In this document: one piece after another, positions 24,093-29,687 of the stretch | Layout of the letters: every line of letters starts with the position of its first letter | Position numbering within the stretch: the stretch's first letter is position 1 | NCBI GenBank assembly: GCA_963824985.1 | Contig: CAWGRQ010000030.1 | Coordinates: 64,583-128,582, forward strand | Reading direction: 5' to 3' | Source: Terriglobia bacterium | GTDB taxonomy: Bacteria > Acidobacteriota > UBA6911 | DNA length: 64,000 nucleotides | Notes under the pieces: generated by a model | Database searches by the model: none | Seen by the model: the letters and a program-made list of their open reading frames with translations, nothing else | What the model was told of the DNA's origin: nothing | Position numbers and translations under genes: made by a program

Positions 24093-26165
24093 ATGTTCAG
24101 GACCTTTGTCACGCGCATCCTGGCAGTGGTGGCGGTATCGGCCGTCATGTTACCCGCGCAGACAGCGCGGCGCCCGCTTGGACTCGACGACATGCCCCGT
24201 CTGCGAGAAGTCCGGGACCCGCAGTGCTCGCCCGATGGCAAGTGGGTGGCCTACGTCGTCTCCATGATTGACGCAAAGGAGGACAAGAGCAGCGCGCACA
24301 TCTGGATGGTCGGCTACGATGGCCAGGGGGAACGACAGATCACTTCCAGCCAGGACAGCGAGTCCTCGCCGCGCTGGAGCCCGGATGGGAAATACCTGTC
24401 ATTCACTTCGTCCCGGCCGGGCAAGGCCAGCGGCAACCAGGTCTGGCTGATGGACCGAGGCGGCGGCGAGGCCTTCCAGCTCACCGAAACCAAAGGGCGC
24501 CTGCAGGGGTATGAATGGTCTCCGGATTCCAAACGGATTGCGCTGGTGGTCGGCGATCCCGATCCCGAAGCCGAATCGGCCGCGCCCGGCACCGCAGCCG
24601 GGACCGGGGGACGGGGCGGAACCCAGAGAGCTCCCAAACCGATCGTAATCGACCGCTACAAATATAAGCAGGATGGGCAGGGATACCTCCTGTCAGGTCG
24701 GCATTCCTATATATACCTGTTTGAGATCGCAACCAGGAAAACGGACCGGCTCACCGCCGGGACATGGGATGAATCGAGTCCATCGTGGTCACCTGACGGA
24801 TCACGGATCGCCTTCATGAGCAATCATGCGGAAGATCCGGATCGCGATCCGGCCAGCCAGATTTTCGTGGCCGAATCCAAGCCCGGGTCTGCAATCAAGG
24901 AGGTGACTCCGCCGACCAGCCGTGCGTCACGCTCGCAACCGGCCTGGAGTCCCGACGGCAAGTGGATTACATACCTGGAAACGGACGAAAAGGCCTACAA
25001 CGCTTACAGCATGACGCATCTGGCAGTCGTCGCCGCCGATGGCAGCGCTGCCCCCACGAGAGTGAAGGCGGTGGAGGATCTCGACCGCGGCGTCTCGTCA
25101 CCCGAATTCAGCCGCGACGGTCGGTTCATTGCGTTTACCGTCACGGACGACCGATCGGTATATCCTGCGCGGGTCGGCACCGCCGGCGGCCCGGTCGAGC
25201 GCCTGATGAAACCGCCCGTGGTCCTTTCCAGCTGGGTCACCGAAGGGGGTTGCACCGCGGTAATCTCCGGCGGCGACACCAGGTACAATGAAGTGCACGC
25301 GCTGGAGGGAGGCTCCCTTCGCCAGATCACACATCAGAACGATGCGCTGTTTGCCGAGCTGCAGATTGCGCCCACGGAGGAAGTAAACTTCAAGAGCCCG
25401 GACGGAACCGAAGTGCACGGGCTCCTGACCCGGCCGGTGAATTATGTGCCAGGCACAAAAGTCCCCCTGCTGCTGCGCATTCATGGTGGTCCCAACGGCC
25501 AGGATCAGCATTCGTTCAGCGTGGAACGCCAGTTTTTTGCGGCGCACGGCTATGCCGTGCTGGCGGTGAACTACCGCGGAAGTTCCGGCCGCGGAATGAA
25601 ATACTCGCGTTCCATTTTTGCCGACTGGGGACATTTCGAAGTCGAAGACCTGAAGGCCGGGGTCGATTACGTCATCAAGATGGGTGTTGCCGATCCCGAA
25701 AAGTTGGGCGTGGGCGGCTGGAGCTACGGTGGAATTCTGACCGACTACATGGTTGCAAGCGACACCAGGTTCAAGGCGGCCACGAGCGGCGCCGGCACCG
25801 CATTTACCGTCGCCTTTTACGGCACCGACCAGTACATCATCCAGTACGACTACGAAATCGGGCCGCCCTGGAATCCGAAATCGTGGGAGATCTACCAGAA
25901 GATTTCGTACCCGTTCCTGCATGCCGATCGAATCAAAACTCCGACCCTGTTTCTGGGCGGGGAGCGCGACTTCAATGTCCCGGTGCAGGGGGGTCAGCAG
26001 ATGTACCAGGCGCTGCGCAGCCTCGGGATCGACACGCAGCTCATCATTTATCCGAACGAGAATCACGGCATCAGCCGGCCAAGCTACGTCCGGGACCGTT
26101 ACGAGCGTTACCTGGCGTGGTACGACAAATACATAAAGGGGGTGTCCCCCGCCCCGGCAAAATAG
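24093..26165 (+). CDS. S9 family peptidase with N-terminal TolB-like beta-propeller (acylaminoacyl-peptidase / DPP type)
   Basis: Repeated SP.WSPDGK propeller motifs. Catalytic domain motifs: LLLRIHGGP, GGWSYGG, GGERDFNVP, NENHG. Start at ATG 24093 (MFRTFVTRILAVVAV) with GGAGG 7 nt upstream. Confidence 0.92.
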   Translation: MFRTFVTRILAVVAVSAVMLPAQTARRPLGLDDMPRLREVRDPQCSPDGKWVAYVVSMIDAKEDKSSAHIWMVGYDGQGERQITSSQDSESSPRWSPDGKYLSFTSSRPGKASGNQVWLMDRGGGEAFQLTETKGRLQGYEWSPDSKRIALVVGDPDPEAESAAPGTAAGTGGRGGTQRAPKPIVIDRYKYKQDGQGYLLSGRHSYIYLFEIATRKTDRLTAGTWDESSPSWSPDGSRIAFMSNHAEDPDRDPASQIFVAESKPGSAIKEVTPPTSRASRSQPAWSPDGKWITYLETDEKAYNAYSMTHLAVVAADGSAAPTRVKAVEDLDRGVSSPEFSRDGRFIAFTVTDDRSVYPARVGTAGGPVERLMKPPVVLSSWVTEGGCTAVISGGDTRYNEVHALEGGSLRQITHQNDALFAELQIAPTEEVNFKSPDGTEVHGLLTRPVNYVPGTKVPLLLRIHGGPNGQDQHSFSVERQFFAAHGYAVLAVNYRGSSGRGMKYSRSIFADWGHFEVEDLKAGVDYVIKMGVADPEKLGVGGWSYGGILTDYMVASDTRFKAATSGAGTAFTVAFYGTDQYIIQYDYEIGPPWNPKSWEIYQKISYPFLHADRIKTPTLFLGGERDFNVPVQGGQQMYQALRSLGIDTQLIIYPNENHGISRPSYVRDRYERYLAWYDKYIKGVSPAPAK

Positions 26166-26225
26166 CCGGATCGCCGGTACCGGGGCGCATTGCGCGCGAA
26201 TGAGCCTCCGCCGGGGGAAAAGTCC

Positions 26226-26253
26226 TTGCGATCCTGACGTTTGTTGCTATGAT
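26226..26253 (+). promoter_or_regulatory. Candidate sigma70-like promoter of the aro leader
   Basis: TTGCGA (26226-26231), a 16-nt spacer, then TATGAT (26248-26253), about 25 nt upstream of the leader ORF. Pattern match only; promoter consensus in this phylum is not established here. Confidence 0.35.
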
Positions 26254-26275
26254 CTCCGCAGAGGGAACGGAACAG

Positions 26276-26332
26276 ATGCGTCCATATTCGTATTGGCCTT
26301 ATTACTGCAGCTCACACGATGGTGGCCCCTGA
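26276..26332 (+). promoter_or_regulatory. 18-codon Tyr/Trp-rich leader ORF ([18 protein letters not shown])
   Basis: The sequence is atg cgt cca tat tcg tat tgg cct tat tac tgc agc tca cac gat ggt ggc ccc tga. GAGGGA lies 10 nt upstream. Four Tyr and one Trp codon fall within codons 4-10. It sits in the 260-nt leader of an aromatic amino-acid operon. Confidence 0.5.
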
Positions 26333-26377
26333 GGGGTGTGCGTCCTTCCTTTCTTCGCGACATGACGGAAGCGAGAG

Positions 26378-26414
26378 CGGCCCACCGGGGGCAACGGTGG
26401 GCCGTTCGCATTTC
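26378..26414 (+). terminator. Candidate attenuator hairpin in the aroF leader
   Basis: 10-bp GC stem CGGCCCACCG (26378-26387) / CGGTGGGCCG (26395-26404) with a 7-nt loop, followed by TTCGCATTTC and then the aroF SD AGGAG. Confidence 0.45.
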
Positions 26415-26426
26415 AGGAGCAGGATT

Positions 26427-27455
26427 ATGATCATCATATGTGAGACCAAAGCAACCGAAACGCAGATTAAGGCCATACAGAAGGCCATTCATGATGCCGG
26501 CCTCCAGGTCCATCGTTCCGACGGTTCCGAGTACACGGTGCTTGGCGTCATCGGCGATCGCAGCCGTCTGGACATCGGCGCCTTTTCGCTGATGCCCGGC
26601 GTGCGCAACGTGGTTCCGGTCTCTACCCCATACAAGCTAGCCAGCCGCGAATTTCACCCGGAAGACACAATCGTGCCGGTAGGAGAGACCGCCGTGGTGG
26701 GAGGGCCTGAAATCGTAGTAATGGCCGGACCGTGTGCGGTAGAAAACGACGACATGATCGAAGCCAGCGCCCGCGTGGCGTCCCGATGCGGCGCGCGCCT
26801 TTTGCGCGGCGGTGCTTTCAAACCCCGATCATCACCTTACTCGTACCAGGGCTTGGGCGTGGAAGGGTTGAAAATGCTGCGTCAGGCCGCAGACCGGCAC
26901 GAACTTGCGGTTGTGTCGGAGGTAATGACCATCGAACAGATCGAAGTCGTCAGTCAGTATGCGGACCTGCTTCAGATCGGCGCCCGCAACATGCAGAACT
27001 ACCCGCTGCTGACTGCGCTTGGGAAAGCAAAGAAGCCGGTGCTGCTGAAGCGTGGCATCTCGGCGACCATCCAGGAGTGGCTGATGAGCGCAGAGTACAT
27101 CCTCTCTTCGGGCAACCCGGACGTGATCCTCTGCGAACGGGGGATCCGCACTTTCGAAACCGCGACCAGGAATACCCTGGACCTTTCGGCAGTGCCGGTA
27201 ATCAAAAGTCTGTCTCATCTCCCGATCATCGTGGACCCCAGCCACGGCGTCGGCAACCGCCGCTTTGTGGTTCCCATGGCCCGTGCGGCCGTGGCCGCGG
27301 GAGCCGACGGCATTCTGGTGGAAATCCACCCTGATCCCGATAAAGCCCTTTCTGATGGGCCGCAGTCCCTGACTTTCGAGGAGTTCGAGGCCTTGATGAA
27401 TCGCTGCCGGATCATCGGTACCACCATTGGCCGGCGGCTTGGGAAAGCGCGCTGA
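26427..27455 (+). CDS. aroF: 3-deoxy-7-phosphoheptulonate (DAHP) synthase, type I-beta with N-terminal ferredoxin-like regulatory domain
   Basis: From [21 protein letters not shown] the protein is co-linear with Thermotoga-type DAHPS as I remember it. Motifs: [70 protein letters not shown]. The 36-codon 5' extension in the ORF track (26319) is not protein-like. Confidence 0.93.
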
Positions 27456-27456
27456 C

Positions 27457-28647
27457 ATGAAATCCCCGAAAATCACGATTATCGGTTGCGGATTGATCGG
27501 CGGGTCGATTGCCCTGGCTCTCAGGCGCAGGCGACCCGACTGGGTGCTCGCGTGCCTTGATCTCCCCGAGCGCCTGGCCGCCCTCAAGGAGGCGGAGATC
27601 GGAGACGAAATCGGTTCTCTGGACGATGCTGCCACTCACGTGCCGGGGAGTTCCTTCGTGCTTCTGGCAATACCGGTAGAGGCCACTTGCGAAACGCTCA
27701 CCCTCATCCGTCCCTTCCTTGACGAAGGGACGATCATCAGTGACGTGGGCAGCACGAAGAAGCAGATCATGGCTGAAGCCCGCAAACTCCTGCCTCCCGA
27801 CGTTCACTTTATCGGCGGTCACCCCATGGCCGGCTCGGAACGATCCGGGATCGAAGCCGCGGATGCGCTCCTGTTCAGCGACCGCGCCTACATTCTATGT
27901 CCGTACCAGGACACGCCTCCCGACGCCCTGCTGTCGCTCCTGGACCTGATTGAATCTCTGCCATCACTTCCAATCACCCTTGACCCCGAAGAACACGACC
28001 GCATGATGGCTGTGGTGAGCCACTTGCCGCAGTTGATCGCGGTGGCCCTCATGCAGGCAGGCCAGGCGGCCGATGCCACGCACACGCTCCTGAACACGCT
28101 CGCCGGACGCGGCTTCCTCGACATGACCCGGCTGGCGGCATCCGACTTTGGTGTCTGGAAGGGAATCCTTGAATCCAATGGCGATGCCATCCGAGATGCC
28201 CTGGATCTCTTCGAAGAGTTCCTCTCGTCACTGCGGCAGGCCATTTCAGCCGGCACTGCCGCCCCAGCCTGGGAACAGGCCGCCCGACGACGCCGTAACA
28301 TGGATGCTGAAAGCCGTGCCAGGCTGCGCAAGCCGGATCTGCGCAGCACCATCGACCGCTGCGACAAGCAGATCCTGGGATCGCTGGGCCAGCGCATGCG
28401 CGCGGCACGCAAGATCGGGGATCTGAAGAGGAGCCAGGCCACTCCGGTCACCGATCCGGACCGGGAAAAGCGCCTGATCCGCCAGCGGGAGGATTGGGCC
28501 CGATCGCTGGGCCTGCCACCGGCGTTGGTCGATGATCTTTTCGCCGTAATCGTGAAACACAGCACCCTTCTTCAGAGTTCACCGCAGGTCGGACCAGGAA
28601 AGCCTGCCGGCCCTTCGGAACCCGGGAAAGGAAAGGACTCTTCATGA
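27457..28647 (+). CDS. tyrA: Bifunctional prephenate dehydrogenase (N-terminal) / AroQ chorismate mutase (C-terminal)
   Basis: ATG 27457 lies 1 nt after the aroF stop. [18 protein letters not shown] Rossmann motif and [12 protein letters not shown] are typical of TyrA. The C-terminal [30 protein letters not shown] ... PDREKRLI ... LFAVIVKHS (nt about 28333-28572) is a chorismate mutase type II helix bundle. Confidence 0.88.
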
Positions 28648-28973
28648 ACATTAACGATGTGGCGTTCTGCACAACCGATTGGCAAACCCTGCCTGCGGCG
28701 GCGCATCCGGGTGAACGGGGGACGGCCTACTGGCGGACCTTCGAATCCGGCAATATACGGGTACGGATGGTGGAGTACACACCGGGGTATCTCGCGGACC
28801 ACTGGTGCCATCGCGGGCACGTGTTGCTGGTGCTCGAAGGCGAATTGACCACCGAATTGCAGAATGGCGAGTCCCACACTCTCGGGCCGGGTCAGAGCTA
28901 CCAGGTTGCGGATAACGCCGCACCACACCGCTCCCGCACTGAACGGGGTGCGAAGCTGTTTATTGTCGATTAG
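28644..28973 (+). CDS. DHCW-motif cupin fold protein
   Basis: 109 aa. LADHWCHRGHVLLVLEGEL ... GQSYQV is the cupin core. Its ATG overlaps the tyrA stop (ATGA). Confidence 0.8.
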   Translation: MNINDVAFCTTDWQTLPAAAHPGERGTAYWRTFESGNIRVRMVEYTPGYLADHWCHRGHVLLVLEGELTTELQNGESHTLGPGQSYQVADNAAPHRSRTERGAKLFIVD

Positions 28974-29048
28974 CCATGGCGCCGGGCATCCCCGGATTTG
29001 GAGCCGCAGTCCCCCACGAGCTATACTTACGGGCAAAAGGGGGTGCGT

Positions 29049-29351
29049 ATGATCTTGGTTCGGAATGTCTTCCAACTGAAGTTCGGCAAAACCCGGGACG
29101 CGGTAGCCCTCTTCAAAGAGGGGATCGCCCTCATGCACAAGCTCGGATTCGGGCACGTGCAGGCACGGCTGCTGACGGACGTGGTCGGCACGTTTTACAC
29201 GCTGGTTCTCGAACAGACCTTTGCCTCACTCGCAGATTTCGAGAATTCAGGAAAAGCCCTGATGGCCAACGAAACCTGGAAGGGCTGGTATCAGAAGGCC
29301 GTTCCCATGATCGAGTCCGGCCGGCGCGAGGTATTCACGGTCGTGGATTAG
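29049..29351 (+). CDS. Small hypothetical protein (NIPSNAP/dimeric alpha-beta-barrel-like)
   Basis: I prefer the internal ATG 29049 (MILVRNVFQLKFGK...), giving 100 aa. The fold guess is weak. Last gene of the aro cluster, followed by a hairpin. Confidence 0.6.
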   Translation: MILVRNVFQLKFGKTRDAVALFKEGIALMHKLGFGHVQARLLTDVVGTFYTLVLEQTFASLADFENSGKALMANETWKGWYQKAVPMIESGRREVFTVVD

Positions 29352-29364
29352 CCGCCCAAAAACC

Positions 29365-29445
29365 GGGGGACAATCCTGTTTTCCCTTCTTCTCCGTTATC
29401 AGTCGGCAGGAGGATCGGGAAACAGGGATGTCCCCCAATTTTTCG
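29365..29445 (+). terminator. Long hairpin followed by a T-run
   Basis: GGGGGACAATCCTGTTTTCCC (29365-29385) pairs with GGGAAACAGGGATGTCCCCC (29417-29436), followed by AATTTTTCG. Confidence 0.5.
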
Positions 29446-29687
29446 ACTTCCGCAACAAAAAGGTTAACTTCTTATATAACAATAATTAACATCATACTGT
29501 CCGGGCCTGCCTGGCGTTTGCTCCCATACCCGCGAGCGTTCGTATGGGACCAAAAGCCAGGAAAAATCAGACACCCCTCCCATTTTTTGCCTTCCTCTTC
29601 TGACTTACATTGGTATCGAGAAATAGGTGAAGCAAACATCCCCCTCGATCACGAGACCGGACGCGTCGCAAATATCGGAGGAAAACA

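Follow-up and report, generated by a model that had tools for sequence, protein, structure and literature searches.

A candidate tyrosine-sensing leader-peptide attenuator ahead of the DAHP synthase operon in Acidobacteriota

Leader-peptide attenuation is textbook knowledge for Trp, Phe, His, Leu, Thr and Ile/Val, with Tyr as the odd one out. A 64,000-nt stretch of DNA from a Terriglobia bacterium (contig CAWGRQ010000030.1, hereafter the window) raises the question of whether such a system exists for tyrosine. Here a short, Tyr-rich open reading frame (ORF) and a GC-rich hairpin stand in front of an aroF-type gene for 3-deoxy-D-arabino-heptulosonate 7-phosphate (DAHP) synthase (DAHPS) and a gene for a prephenate dehydrogenase-chorismate mutase fusion (PDH-CM). 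A preliminary description of the locus, made from the letters alone, had proposed a ribosome-mediated attenuator that reads Tyr codons. Comparison with related loci supports this proposal, as mini-ORF and hairpin are kept in 30 loci. The element is, in our judgment, most probably a classical leader-peptide transcription attenuator that senses charged tRNA-Tyr and controls the DAHPS/PDH-CM operon; the codon content suggests that charged tRNA-Phe is also sensed, to a lesser degree.

The leader ORF and its conservation

The leader ORF occupies positions 26276-26332 of the forward strand, on which all features of the locus lie. It consists of 18 codons followed by a stop (ATG 26276, TGA 26330-32), with the Shine-Dalgarno (SD) sequence GAGGGA (26261-66) located 9 nt before the ATG. 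Five of codons 4 to 10 (26285..26305) are aromatic, namely codons 4, 6, 7, 9 and 10 (TAT 26285, TAT 26291, TGG 26294, TAT 26300, TAC 26303), three of the four Tyr codons being TAT. In these respects the sequence bears out what had been described. The ORF closes with a Pro codon directly before the stop (CCC TGA, 26327..26332), followed by GGG.

The DAHPS protein was used as query against one genome per species and against JGI metagenomes. The relatives returned were 64-86% identical in DAHPS, and their labels were nearly all Acidobacteriota or Terriglobia (metagenome-assembled genomes and metagenomes). The leader stands before the orthologous operon in 30 loci from Acidobacteriota, the window included, which encode 29 distinct peptides. 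These loci comprise every close relative with enough upstream DNA, and in each of them mini-ORF and hairpin are present and the start, frame and stop of the ORF are kept. Alignment of the orthologous leaders revealed both a conserved Tyr-rich mini-ORF and compensatory changes in the stem, so that the leader passed the comparative test which the preliminary description had set. The elements follow one another in the same order in the 30 loci: an extended -10 element, a purine-rich SD box, an ORF of 16-21 codons, CCC-stop-GGG, a CUUUCUU box, an AGAAAG box, a hairpin of the form GCGGCCCRCC...GGYGGGCCG and a T-rich tail. From the stop codon to the end of the terminator 3' arm there are 67-77 nt (30 loci), and from the terminator to the DAHPS ATG 20-24 nt in 23 loci and 43-96 nt in the remaining seven. 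Wherever the downstream DNA was long enough (29 loci), DAHPS and PDH-CM come after the leader; on its upstream side, no gene is conserved between loci.

A covariance model built from the other 29 loci, with the window left out, matched 26318-26414(+) with 71.4 bits (E=3.8e-16) and had no other significant full-model match on the + strand of the 64-kb window. The covariance model R1 found no new leaders beyond its 30 source leaders in 160 related loci or the window, and its weak minus-strand matches represent the palindromic terminator. The leader arrangement is more than chance, and the decisive basis for this statement is the comparative data, not the window alone. Note that in two metagenome loci with DAHPS 74-79% identical (L095:1-172 and L100:1-133) the leader is absent from the upstream DNA available. 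The element is thus not universal, even in close orthologues.

No Rfam family reached its gathering score in the 64-kb window, T-box, leader and riboswitch families included. At E<=10, region 26100-26500 gave four chance-level matches to unrelated families, among them ctRNA_pGA1, a small nucleolar RNA and a long non-coding RNA. The known leader families (Phe_leader, Trp_leader, His_leader, Leu_leader, Thr_leader, Bacteroid-trp and the leu/phe leader), the T-box and riboswitches were ruled out by this lack of an Rfam match.

The 29 distinct peptides, 16-21 codons in length, are strongly enriched in tyrosine: Tyr makes up 127 of 486 residues (26.1%) and Phe 6%, compared to 3.4% Tyr and 3.7% Phe in the genes of the window. 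Counted from the C-terminus, an aromatic residue is found at position -10 in 29/29 peptides, at -9 in 26/29 and at -5 in 22/29. The Tyr codons are mixed (81 TAT, 46 TAC) and all three stops, TGA, TAG and TAA, are in use, indicating that the constraint acts on translation. Phe codons in many leaders, and the one Trp codon in the window, suggest some cross-sensing, and such breadth would make sense at the first common step of the pathway.

The last residue is Pro in 30/30 leaders and the penultimate one is D, G or S in 27/30, the stretch between the Tyr run and the terminal Pro being variable. Pro remains last even where the stop is shifted to overlap the GGG (L008, L089, L094). The terminal codon is CCC in 27 leaders, CCT in two and CCG in one, although among Pro codons the window's genes favour CCG, which argues that RNA pairing also constrains the Pro codon. 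RNA-pairing and peptide constraints may thus both act on the terminal Pro.

Predicted terminator and antiterminator, and ribosome position

The GC stem noted in front of the aroF SD is present, but with 11 bp instead of the 10 bp first given. It pairs GCGGCCCACCG (26377-87) with CGGTGGGCCGT (26395-26405) across the loop GGGGCAA, with a free energy of -24.6 kcal/mol, and is followed by TTCGCATTTC; together with its interrupted U-tail UUCGCAUUUC the predicted terminator spans 26377..26414. The terminator state is the sole fold of the window that stands out (z=-2.84). All 14 members from the genome collection that were folded form the hairpin with -18 to -30 kcal/mol. The core stem is kept in 30/30 loci, its GGCCC/GGGCC centre is invariant, and RNAalifold recovers the hairpin. 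Compensatory changes occur at two places, from A-U to G-C at an inner position (A-U in 15 loci, G-C in 7) and between G.U, G-C and A-U at the base (18, 6 and 5 loci, respectively).

Three further observations concern the hairpin and its tail. At the inner stem position (alignment A2 columns 79/94, window 26384/26398), 7/30 loci have an A.C mismatch, which may be an intermediate state or a deliberate weakening of the terminator. The tail at 26405-26414 and its equivalents in 15 other loci are of a conserved UUCGCAUUU type, with a conserved CGCA, and not a plain U-run. Finally, a Gemmatimonadota relative with DAHPS 68% identical (L014:2440-2500) keeps the hairpin GGCGGCCCACC..GGGTGGGCCGC with TTTTCACTT; it lies directly 3' of a TTGACA/TAAACT promoter-like site, with no Tyr mini-ORF, and may be a relic or a differently used hairpin.

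For the antiterminator, the ribosome footprint was masked and transcripts were folded as far as the last loop base, at which point the terminator still lacks its 3' arm. When Tyr codons occupied the A-site, 14/14 genome loci gave a single long antiterminator topology (-17 to -36 kcal/mol). Its conserved pairing joins GGGYYGYG, directly after the stop, to (C)GCGGCCC, the lower 5' arm of the terminator. The apical helix is CUUUCU/AGAAAG. Many loci add an outer helix, in which CCCUG, from the last codon and the stop, joins CAGGG/CGGGG in the upper end of the arm and the loop. When the stop codon occupied the A-site instead, the mask (to stop+10) buried the 5' strand, leaving only weak local structure (-6 to -14 kcal/mol). 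In the unconstrained minimum free energy (MFE) fold of the segment from stop to GGCCC, the latter pairs with bases just after the stop in 28/30 loci.

In the window, the antiterminator (26316-26394) totals -33.5 kcal/mol. Its 5' strand, 26325..26353, comprises GCCCCUG, GGGU/UGC and UCCUUCC..UC, and its 3' strand, 26364..26392, comprises GA.GGAAG.GA, GCGGCCC (26377-83) and CGGGGGC (26386-92). GCCCCUG (26325-31) pairs with CGGGGGC, GGGU (26334-37) and UGC (26339-41) pair with GCGGCCC, and UCCUUCC (26343-49) pairs with GGAAG.GA (26367-74). The fold would thereby take up the terminator 5' arm except A84 and C85, together with 5/7 loop bases. The antiterminator first suggested, GGUGGCC (26321-27) with GGCCCACC, does form in the window (-12.5 kcal/mol) but is not conserved, having a mean energy of -5.7 kcal/mol in relatives and about -4 kcal/mol in most. 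It is a window-specific alternative with the same logic as the conserved 26334-41/26377-83 pairing.

In the model-based alignment, 75.7% of antiterminator cells hold standard pairs; sliding the partners by 1-3 columns lowers this share to 35-61%. In 11/30 loci the lower helix is better than those formed with shuffled 5' strands (p<0.05). The mean energy z-score over 30 loci is -1.1 and, like the values for the full leader and the antiterminator of the window, is not decisive by itself. RNAalifold applied to the 30 sequences returned the terminator only. As the antiterminator columns are nearly invariant, the support they lend is conserved complementarity, not covariation; this is weaker evidence, though to be expected of a strand that has two alternative partners.

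The computed geometry agrees with the idea that a stalled ribosome frees, and a ribosome on the stop codon masks, the antiterminator pairing. Toeprints place the edge of a ribosome at +15/16 from the P-site. With Tyr codon 9 or 10 in the A-site, the computed footprint ends at ~26312-15 and the antiterminator 5' strand is free; with UGA 26330 in the A-site, it ends at ~26341-42 and covers 26325-41, and the 5' strand of the pairing first suggested is masked as well.

In the full-length MFE fold, the 5' purine box pairs with 26346-57, the CUUUCUUCG box after the stop. This pairing may represent a 'no translation' state or auto-sequestration of the leader SD. In the absence of a ribosome it competes with the antiterminator in only a few relatives (L003, L012, L013), and a trp-like 1:2 default-off hairpin was rejected as a general feature on this ground.

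Taken together, these elements suggest the following cycle. Transcription would start ~16 nt ahead of the leader ATG. When Tyr-tRNA is plentiful, the ribosome would reach Pro-UGA and bury the antiterminator 5' strand, allowing the GC hairpin 26377-26405 to form and RNA polymerase to terminate in the UUCGCAUUU tail before aroF. When Tyr-tRNA is scarce, the ribosome would stall at codons 4-10 with its 3' edge no further than ~26315. The free segment 26325-26353 would then pair with 26364-26392, sequestering the terminator 5' arm, and the operon would be transcribed. For the OFF state, it seems, a ribosome has to stay on the stop codon until polymerase has moved on by another ~70 nt, and a slowly terminating Pro-UGA would hold the ribosome there long enough. 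The invariant Pro-stop fits this need for a dwelling ribosome because Pro-UGA is a slow-termination context. Conservation of the ORF, of its Tyr codons, Pro-stop and spacing and of the terminator, as well as antiterminator complementarity and geometry, was computed and compared directly; from these data we infer actual termination, a response to tyrosine and a sufficient dwell on Pro-UGA.

Alternative readings and genomic context

Several results weigh against the attenuator. Covariation in the antiterminator is not significant, with 75.7% of cells paired versus 75.4% in column shuffles and five pairs changed on both sides. The antiterminator of the window is no more stable than shuffles (z=-0.98), and in the window's subclade (GGGGU... 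after the stop) the lower helix is weak (-8.4 kcal/mol, p=0.26). The tail of the window, UUCGCAUU, has 4 U in 8 and fails a simple terminator scan; with a test for 5 T in 8, 14/30 loci pass, and the window and 15 others fail. Most leaders also adopt the antiterminator in ribosome-free folds. A robust trp-like 1:2 'default-off' hairpin is therefore lacking, and the model depends on a ribosome that lingers at the stop. Moreover, transcription-translation coupling is, to our knowledge, unstudied in Acidobacteria.

The dependence on the stop codon invites comparison with TnaC. In a nascent-peptide sensor of this kind, release at the stop would depend on free Tyr, alone or together with tRNA charging: a ribosome held at the stop by Tyr would keep the antiterminator masked until starvation set it free. 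Such a sensor would explain the conserved C-terminal x-(D/G/S)-Pro-stop, with D, G or S in 27/30 and with Pro in 30/30 even where the stop is shifted relative to CCC...GGG. Pro-stop is known to slow termination and is central to TnaC (PMC3082878), and with no strong 1:2 hairpin a dwelling ribosome is needed anyway. RNA pairing with GGG can, however, account for the use of CCC in 27/30 leaders against a CCG-rich background. Between Tyr run and Pro the peptide varies, 16-21 codons fill little of the exit tunnel, and the leaders lack a W/D spacing of the TnaC kind. Runs of cognate codons at fixed positions are, on the other hand, the signature of sensors of tRNA charging. We regard a TnaC-like sensor as highly improbable.

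Could the hairpin be a real element with a different role? It might act as a constitutive partial terminator, serve to stabilise or process the RNA, or be bound by an RNA-binding regulator; the mini-ORF would then have no part in regulation or would only load ribosomes. The weak U-tract in 16/30 loci and the hairpin without a Tyr mini-ORF in the Gemmatimonadota locus are in keeping with this possibility. So is the nearly invariant stem GGCCC/GGGCC, which is unusual for a plain terminator; such invariance is nevertheless expected of an arm that has two partners to pair with. Rfam gave no match to a known protein-binding RNA family, and a hairpin acting by itself leaves the 26% Tyr, the fixed aromatic positions, the conserved start, SD, frame and stop and the fixed spacing from stop to hairpin unexplained. 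We consider this explanation highly improbable.

Control at the level of translation, by leader translation altering the structure at the aroF ribosome-binding site or by re-initiation at aroF, has only a slim chance of being correct. The hairpin is close to the gene, its end being separated by 9 nt from the aroF SD and by 21 nt from the ATG (a distance kept at 20-24 nt in 23/30 loci); this and the imperfect U-tract would be compatible with translational control. Yet neither terminator nor antiterminator includes the SD AGGAG (26415-19) or the ATG, seven loci have a gap of 43-96 nt between hairpin and gene, some with canonical U-tracts, and the 94 nt between the leader stop and the aroF ATG are too great a distance for ribosomes to re-initiate. 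Sequestration of the SD was rejected, as the aroF SD and ATG are unpaired in both states. Lastly, an incidental short ORF beside the hairpin of an ordinary intergenic region, a notion to which the unexceptional folds of the window by itself (z=-1.41 for the full leader, z=-0.98 for the antiterminator) might lend some credit, is effectively refuted by the comparative data (30 loci, 29 different peptides, leave-one-out E=3.8e-16) and can be dismissed.

Different aromatic leaders were observed before DAHPS in distant relatives. In Poribacteria, another conserved upstream ORF (uORF) of 46-60 codons precedes the orthologous DAHPS (L046:2172-2447; also L043, L048, L050, L055-L059, L062, L064, L067, L069, L074 and L079, and in a variant form L054, L061, L070 and L078). 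It begins M(M)RTLERNT... and ends ...(F/L)YLYLYLY(G/S)NDRW-UGA. Its end GGUGGUGA (last codons and stop) is complementary to UCACCACC, which overlaps by 2-3 nt a terminator, CCCAGCGUUGAA..UUCGAUGUUGGG with U8. This uORF looks like an independent Tyr-sensing attenuator. A third type is found on Syntrophaceae-like contigs (L044 ~2250-2490; L116 and L143 ~1280-1490), where the uORFs end in ...FSFWFSTYYFYGQVCPSLRRT or ...LYSYYWYWYVGSVCPLRPHL (mixed Phe/Trp/Tyr) and two tandem GCCATGG-type hairpins with U-tracts lie between uORF and DAHPS. These other aromatic leaders look independent of the Acidobacteriota one.

A more far-reaching reading joins two propositions: that the Pro-stop is a functional part of the switch and no by-product of RNA pairing, and that Tyr/aromatic leaders before I-beta DAHPS have arisen independently in at least three lineages (Acidobacteriota, Poribacteria and Syntrophaceae-like bacteria). 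We hold the two together to be rather unlikely. Under this joint reading, programmed slow termination would replace the trp-type 1:2 'anti-antiterminator', with the ribosome parked on the antiterminator 5' strand, and free tyrosine might adjust termination, by analogy with tryptophan and TnaC. If so, the leader would integrate tRNA-Tyr charging at the Tyr codons with a signal at the termination step, and aromatic leaders would constitute a widespread unannotated regulatory layer of the shikimate pathway.

With regard to the surroundings of the Acidobacteriota leader in the window, a promoter-like site occupies 26226..26253, with a -35 TTGCGA, a 16-nt spacer and an extended -10 TGcTATGAT (9/12 match, TG before the -10). 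The predicted 5' untranslated region (26260..26275), of ~16 nt up to the leader ATG, carries the purine-rich box that includes the leader SD and is complementary to the downstream CUUUCUUCG box; a GGAAGAAAG-like purine box is kept among relatives. In most relatives, an extended -10 TG-n-TA(nn)AT is located 20-23 nt ahead of the leader start codon. A further in-frame ATG upstream, at 26249, was excluded as leader start because it lies inside the -10 hexamer. An S9 peptidase gene upstream ends at 26165 and is unrelated to the leader.

Downstream, Pfam matches bore out the gene identities initially given. The aroF-type gene (26415..27455, SD AGGAG at 26415-19, ATG at 26427) encodes a I-beta DAHPS (PF00793, 8.6e-78) with an N-terminal ferredoxin-like (FL) regulatory domain (PF18152, 4.5e-21), and PDH-CM (27427..28647) combines PDH_N, PDH_C and CM_2. 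The last 29 nt of the DAHPS gene (27427-27455) also belong to the longest ORF for PDH-CM. In Thermotoga DAHPS, the FL domain mediates feedback inhibition by Tyr/Phe. Given an FL domain on the enzyme and a leader attenuator, control of DAHPS would act at two levels. A small cupin gene and a 163-aa ORF follow (28644-29467, 4-nt overlap or 2-nt gap) and may be in the same operon in this genome; neither had a tblastn match in the fetched related loci.

Comparison with known systems

The closest parallel in anatomy is E. coli pheL, which ends UUC CCC UGA; its Pro-stop terminates slowly and the C's of its Pro codon pair with downstream G's (PMC3082878). The pheL-pheA system shares with the present leader a very short peptide (15 codons versus 18 here), runs of cognate aromatic codons, a CCC-UGA end, pairing of the Pro-codon C's with downstream G's and the terminator/antiterminator logic before an aromatic-branch gene. 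It differs in that the leader here has Tyr codons, belongs to Acidobacteriota rather than Gammaproteobacteria, precedes DAHPS and tyrA-CM rather than pheA and lacks a clear 1:2 pause hairpin. There is no sequence or structure homology between the two, nor an Rfam leader family even at E<=10.

Leader peptides before aroF had been described elsewhere. According to the accounts of Neshat et al. 2014 in the citing literature, Corynebacterium glutamicum aroR, the one characterised aroF leader, is a Phe-Tyr-Phe leader before aroF that responds to Phe and not to Tyr (via PMC11802643; PMC4046766). It resembles our case as a leader-peptide attenuator with aromatic regulatory codons ahead of a DAHPS gene. 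By its description it is set apart by its single Phe-Tyr-Phe motif, as compared to a run of 4-8 Tyr codons here; moreover, the DAHPS class is a different one (here I-beta, carrying an FL domain), and tyrA-CM is part of the operon here. In Acholeplasma, uORFC-13-1 is a predicted Phe uORF found exclusively upstream of aroF, by an intrinsic terminator (PMC8632094). Both it and the present leader are predictions, but uORFC-13-1 is a different motif, Phe-coding (U-run), and from Mollicutes.

E. coli aroF-tyrA combines the same pair of functions, a Tyr-branch DAHPS and a prephenate dehydrogenase/chorismate mutase, under the control of tyrosine supply. That operon is controlled by TyrR, a DNA-binding repressor, and we know of no Tyr leader peptide established for it. 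Tyr-tRNA-dependent attenuation of aroF-tyrA was hypothesised in 1980 (Camakaris et al., as cited in PMC2659441 and PMC8632094). Unlike the E. coli operon, the one described here has a leader with full attenuator anatomy, as predicted from its sequence. T-box elements of tyrS and aromatic genes in Firmicutes likewise sense tRNA-Tyr charging through a terminator/antiterminator switch. However, they bind uncharged tRNA directly without translation, whereas here a translated-type ORF is conserved and no T-box matches.

The preliminary description had considered a Tyr-sensing attenuator on this operon undescribed. This holds for the Tyr run, of which full-text literature searches returned no description (the 1980 Camakaris paper being known through citing papers), but not for aroF leader peptides as such, which are known in C. 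glutamicum and predicted in Acholeplasma. In Acidobacteria, hardly any attenuator that has been predicted has an assigned function (PMC2965389). A conserved Tyr-run leader would supply the missing tyrosine case in this phylum. It offers a searchable annotation motif, a compact, ready-made candidate for a tyrosine-responsive genetic part and 29 natural peptide variants with which the role of the Pro-stop in attenuation can be probed. The understanding of attenuation itself would be unchanged. In conclusion, the predicted mechanism is the same as in classical leader-peptide attenuation, and what appears to be new is the Tyr specificity, the lineage and the independence from known leaders in terms of homology.

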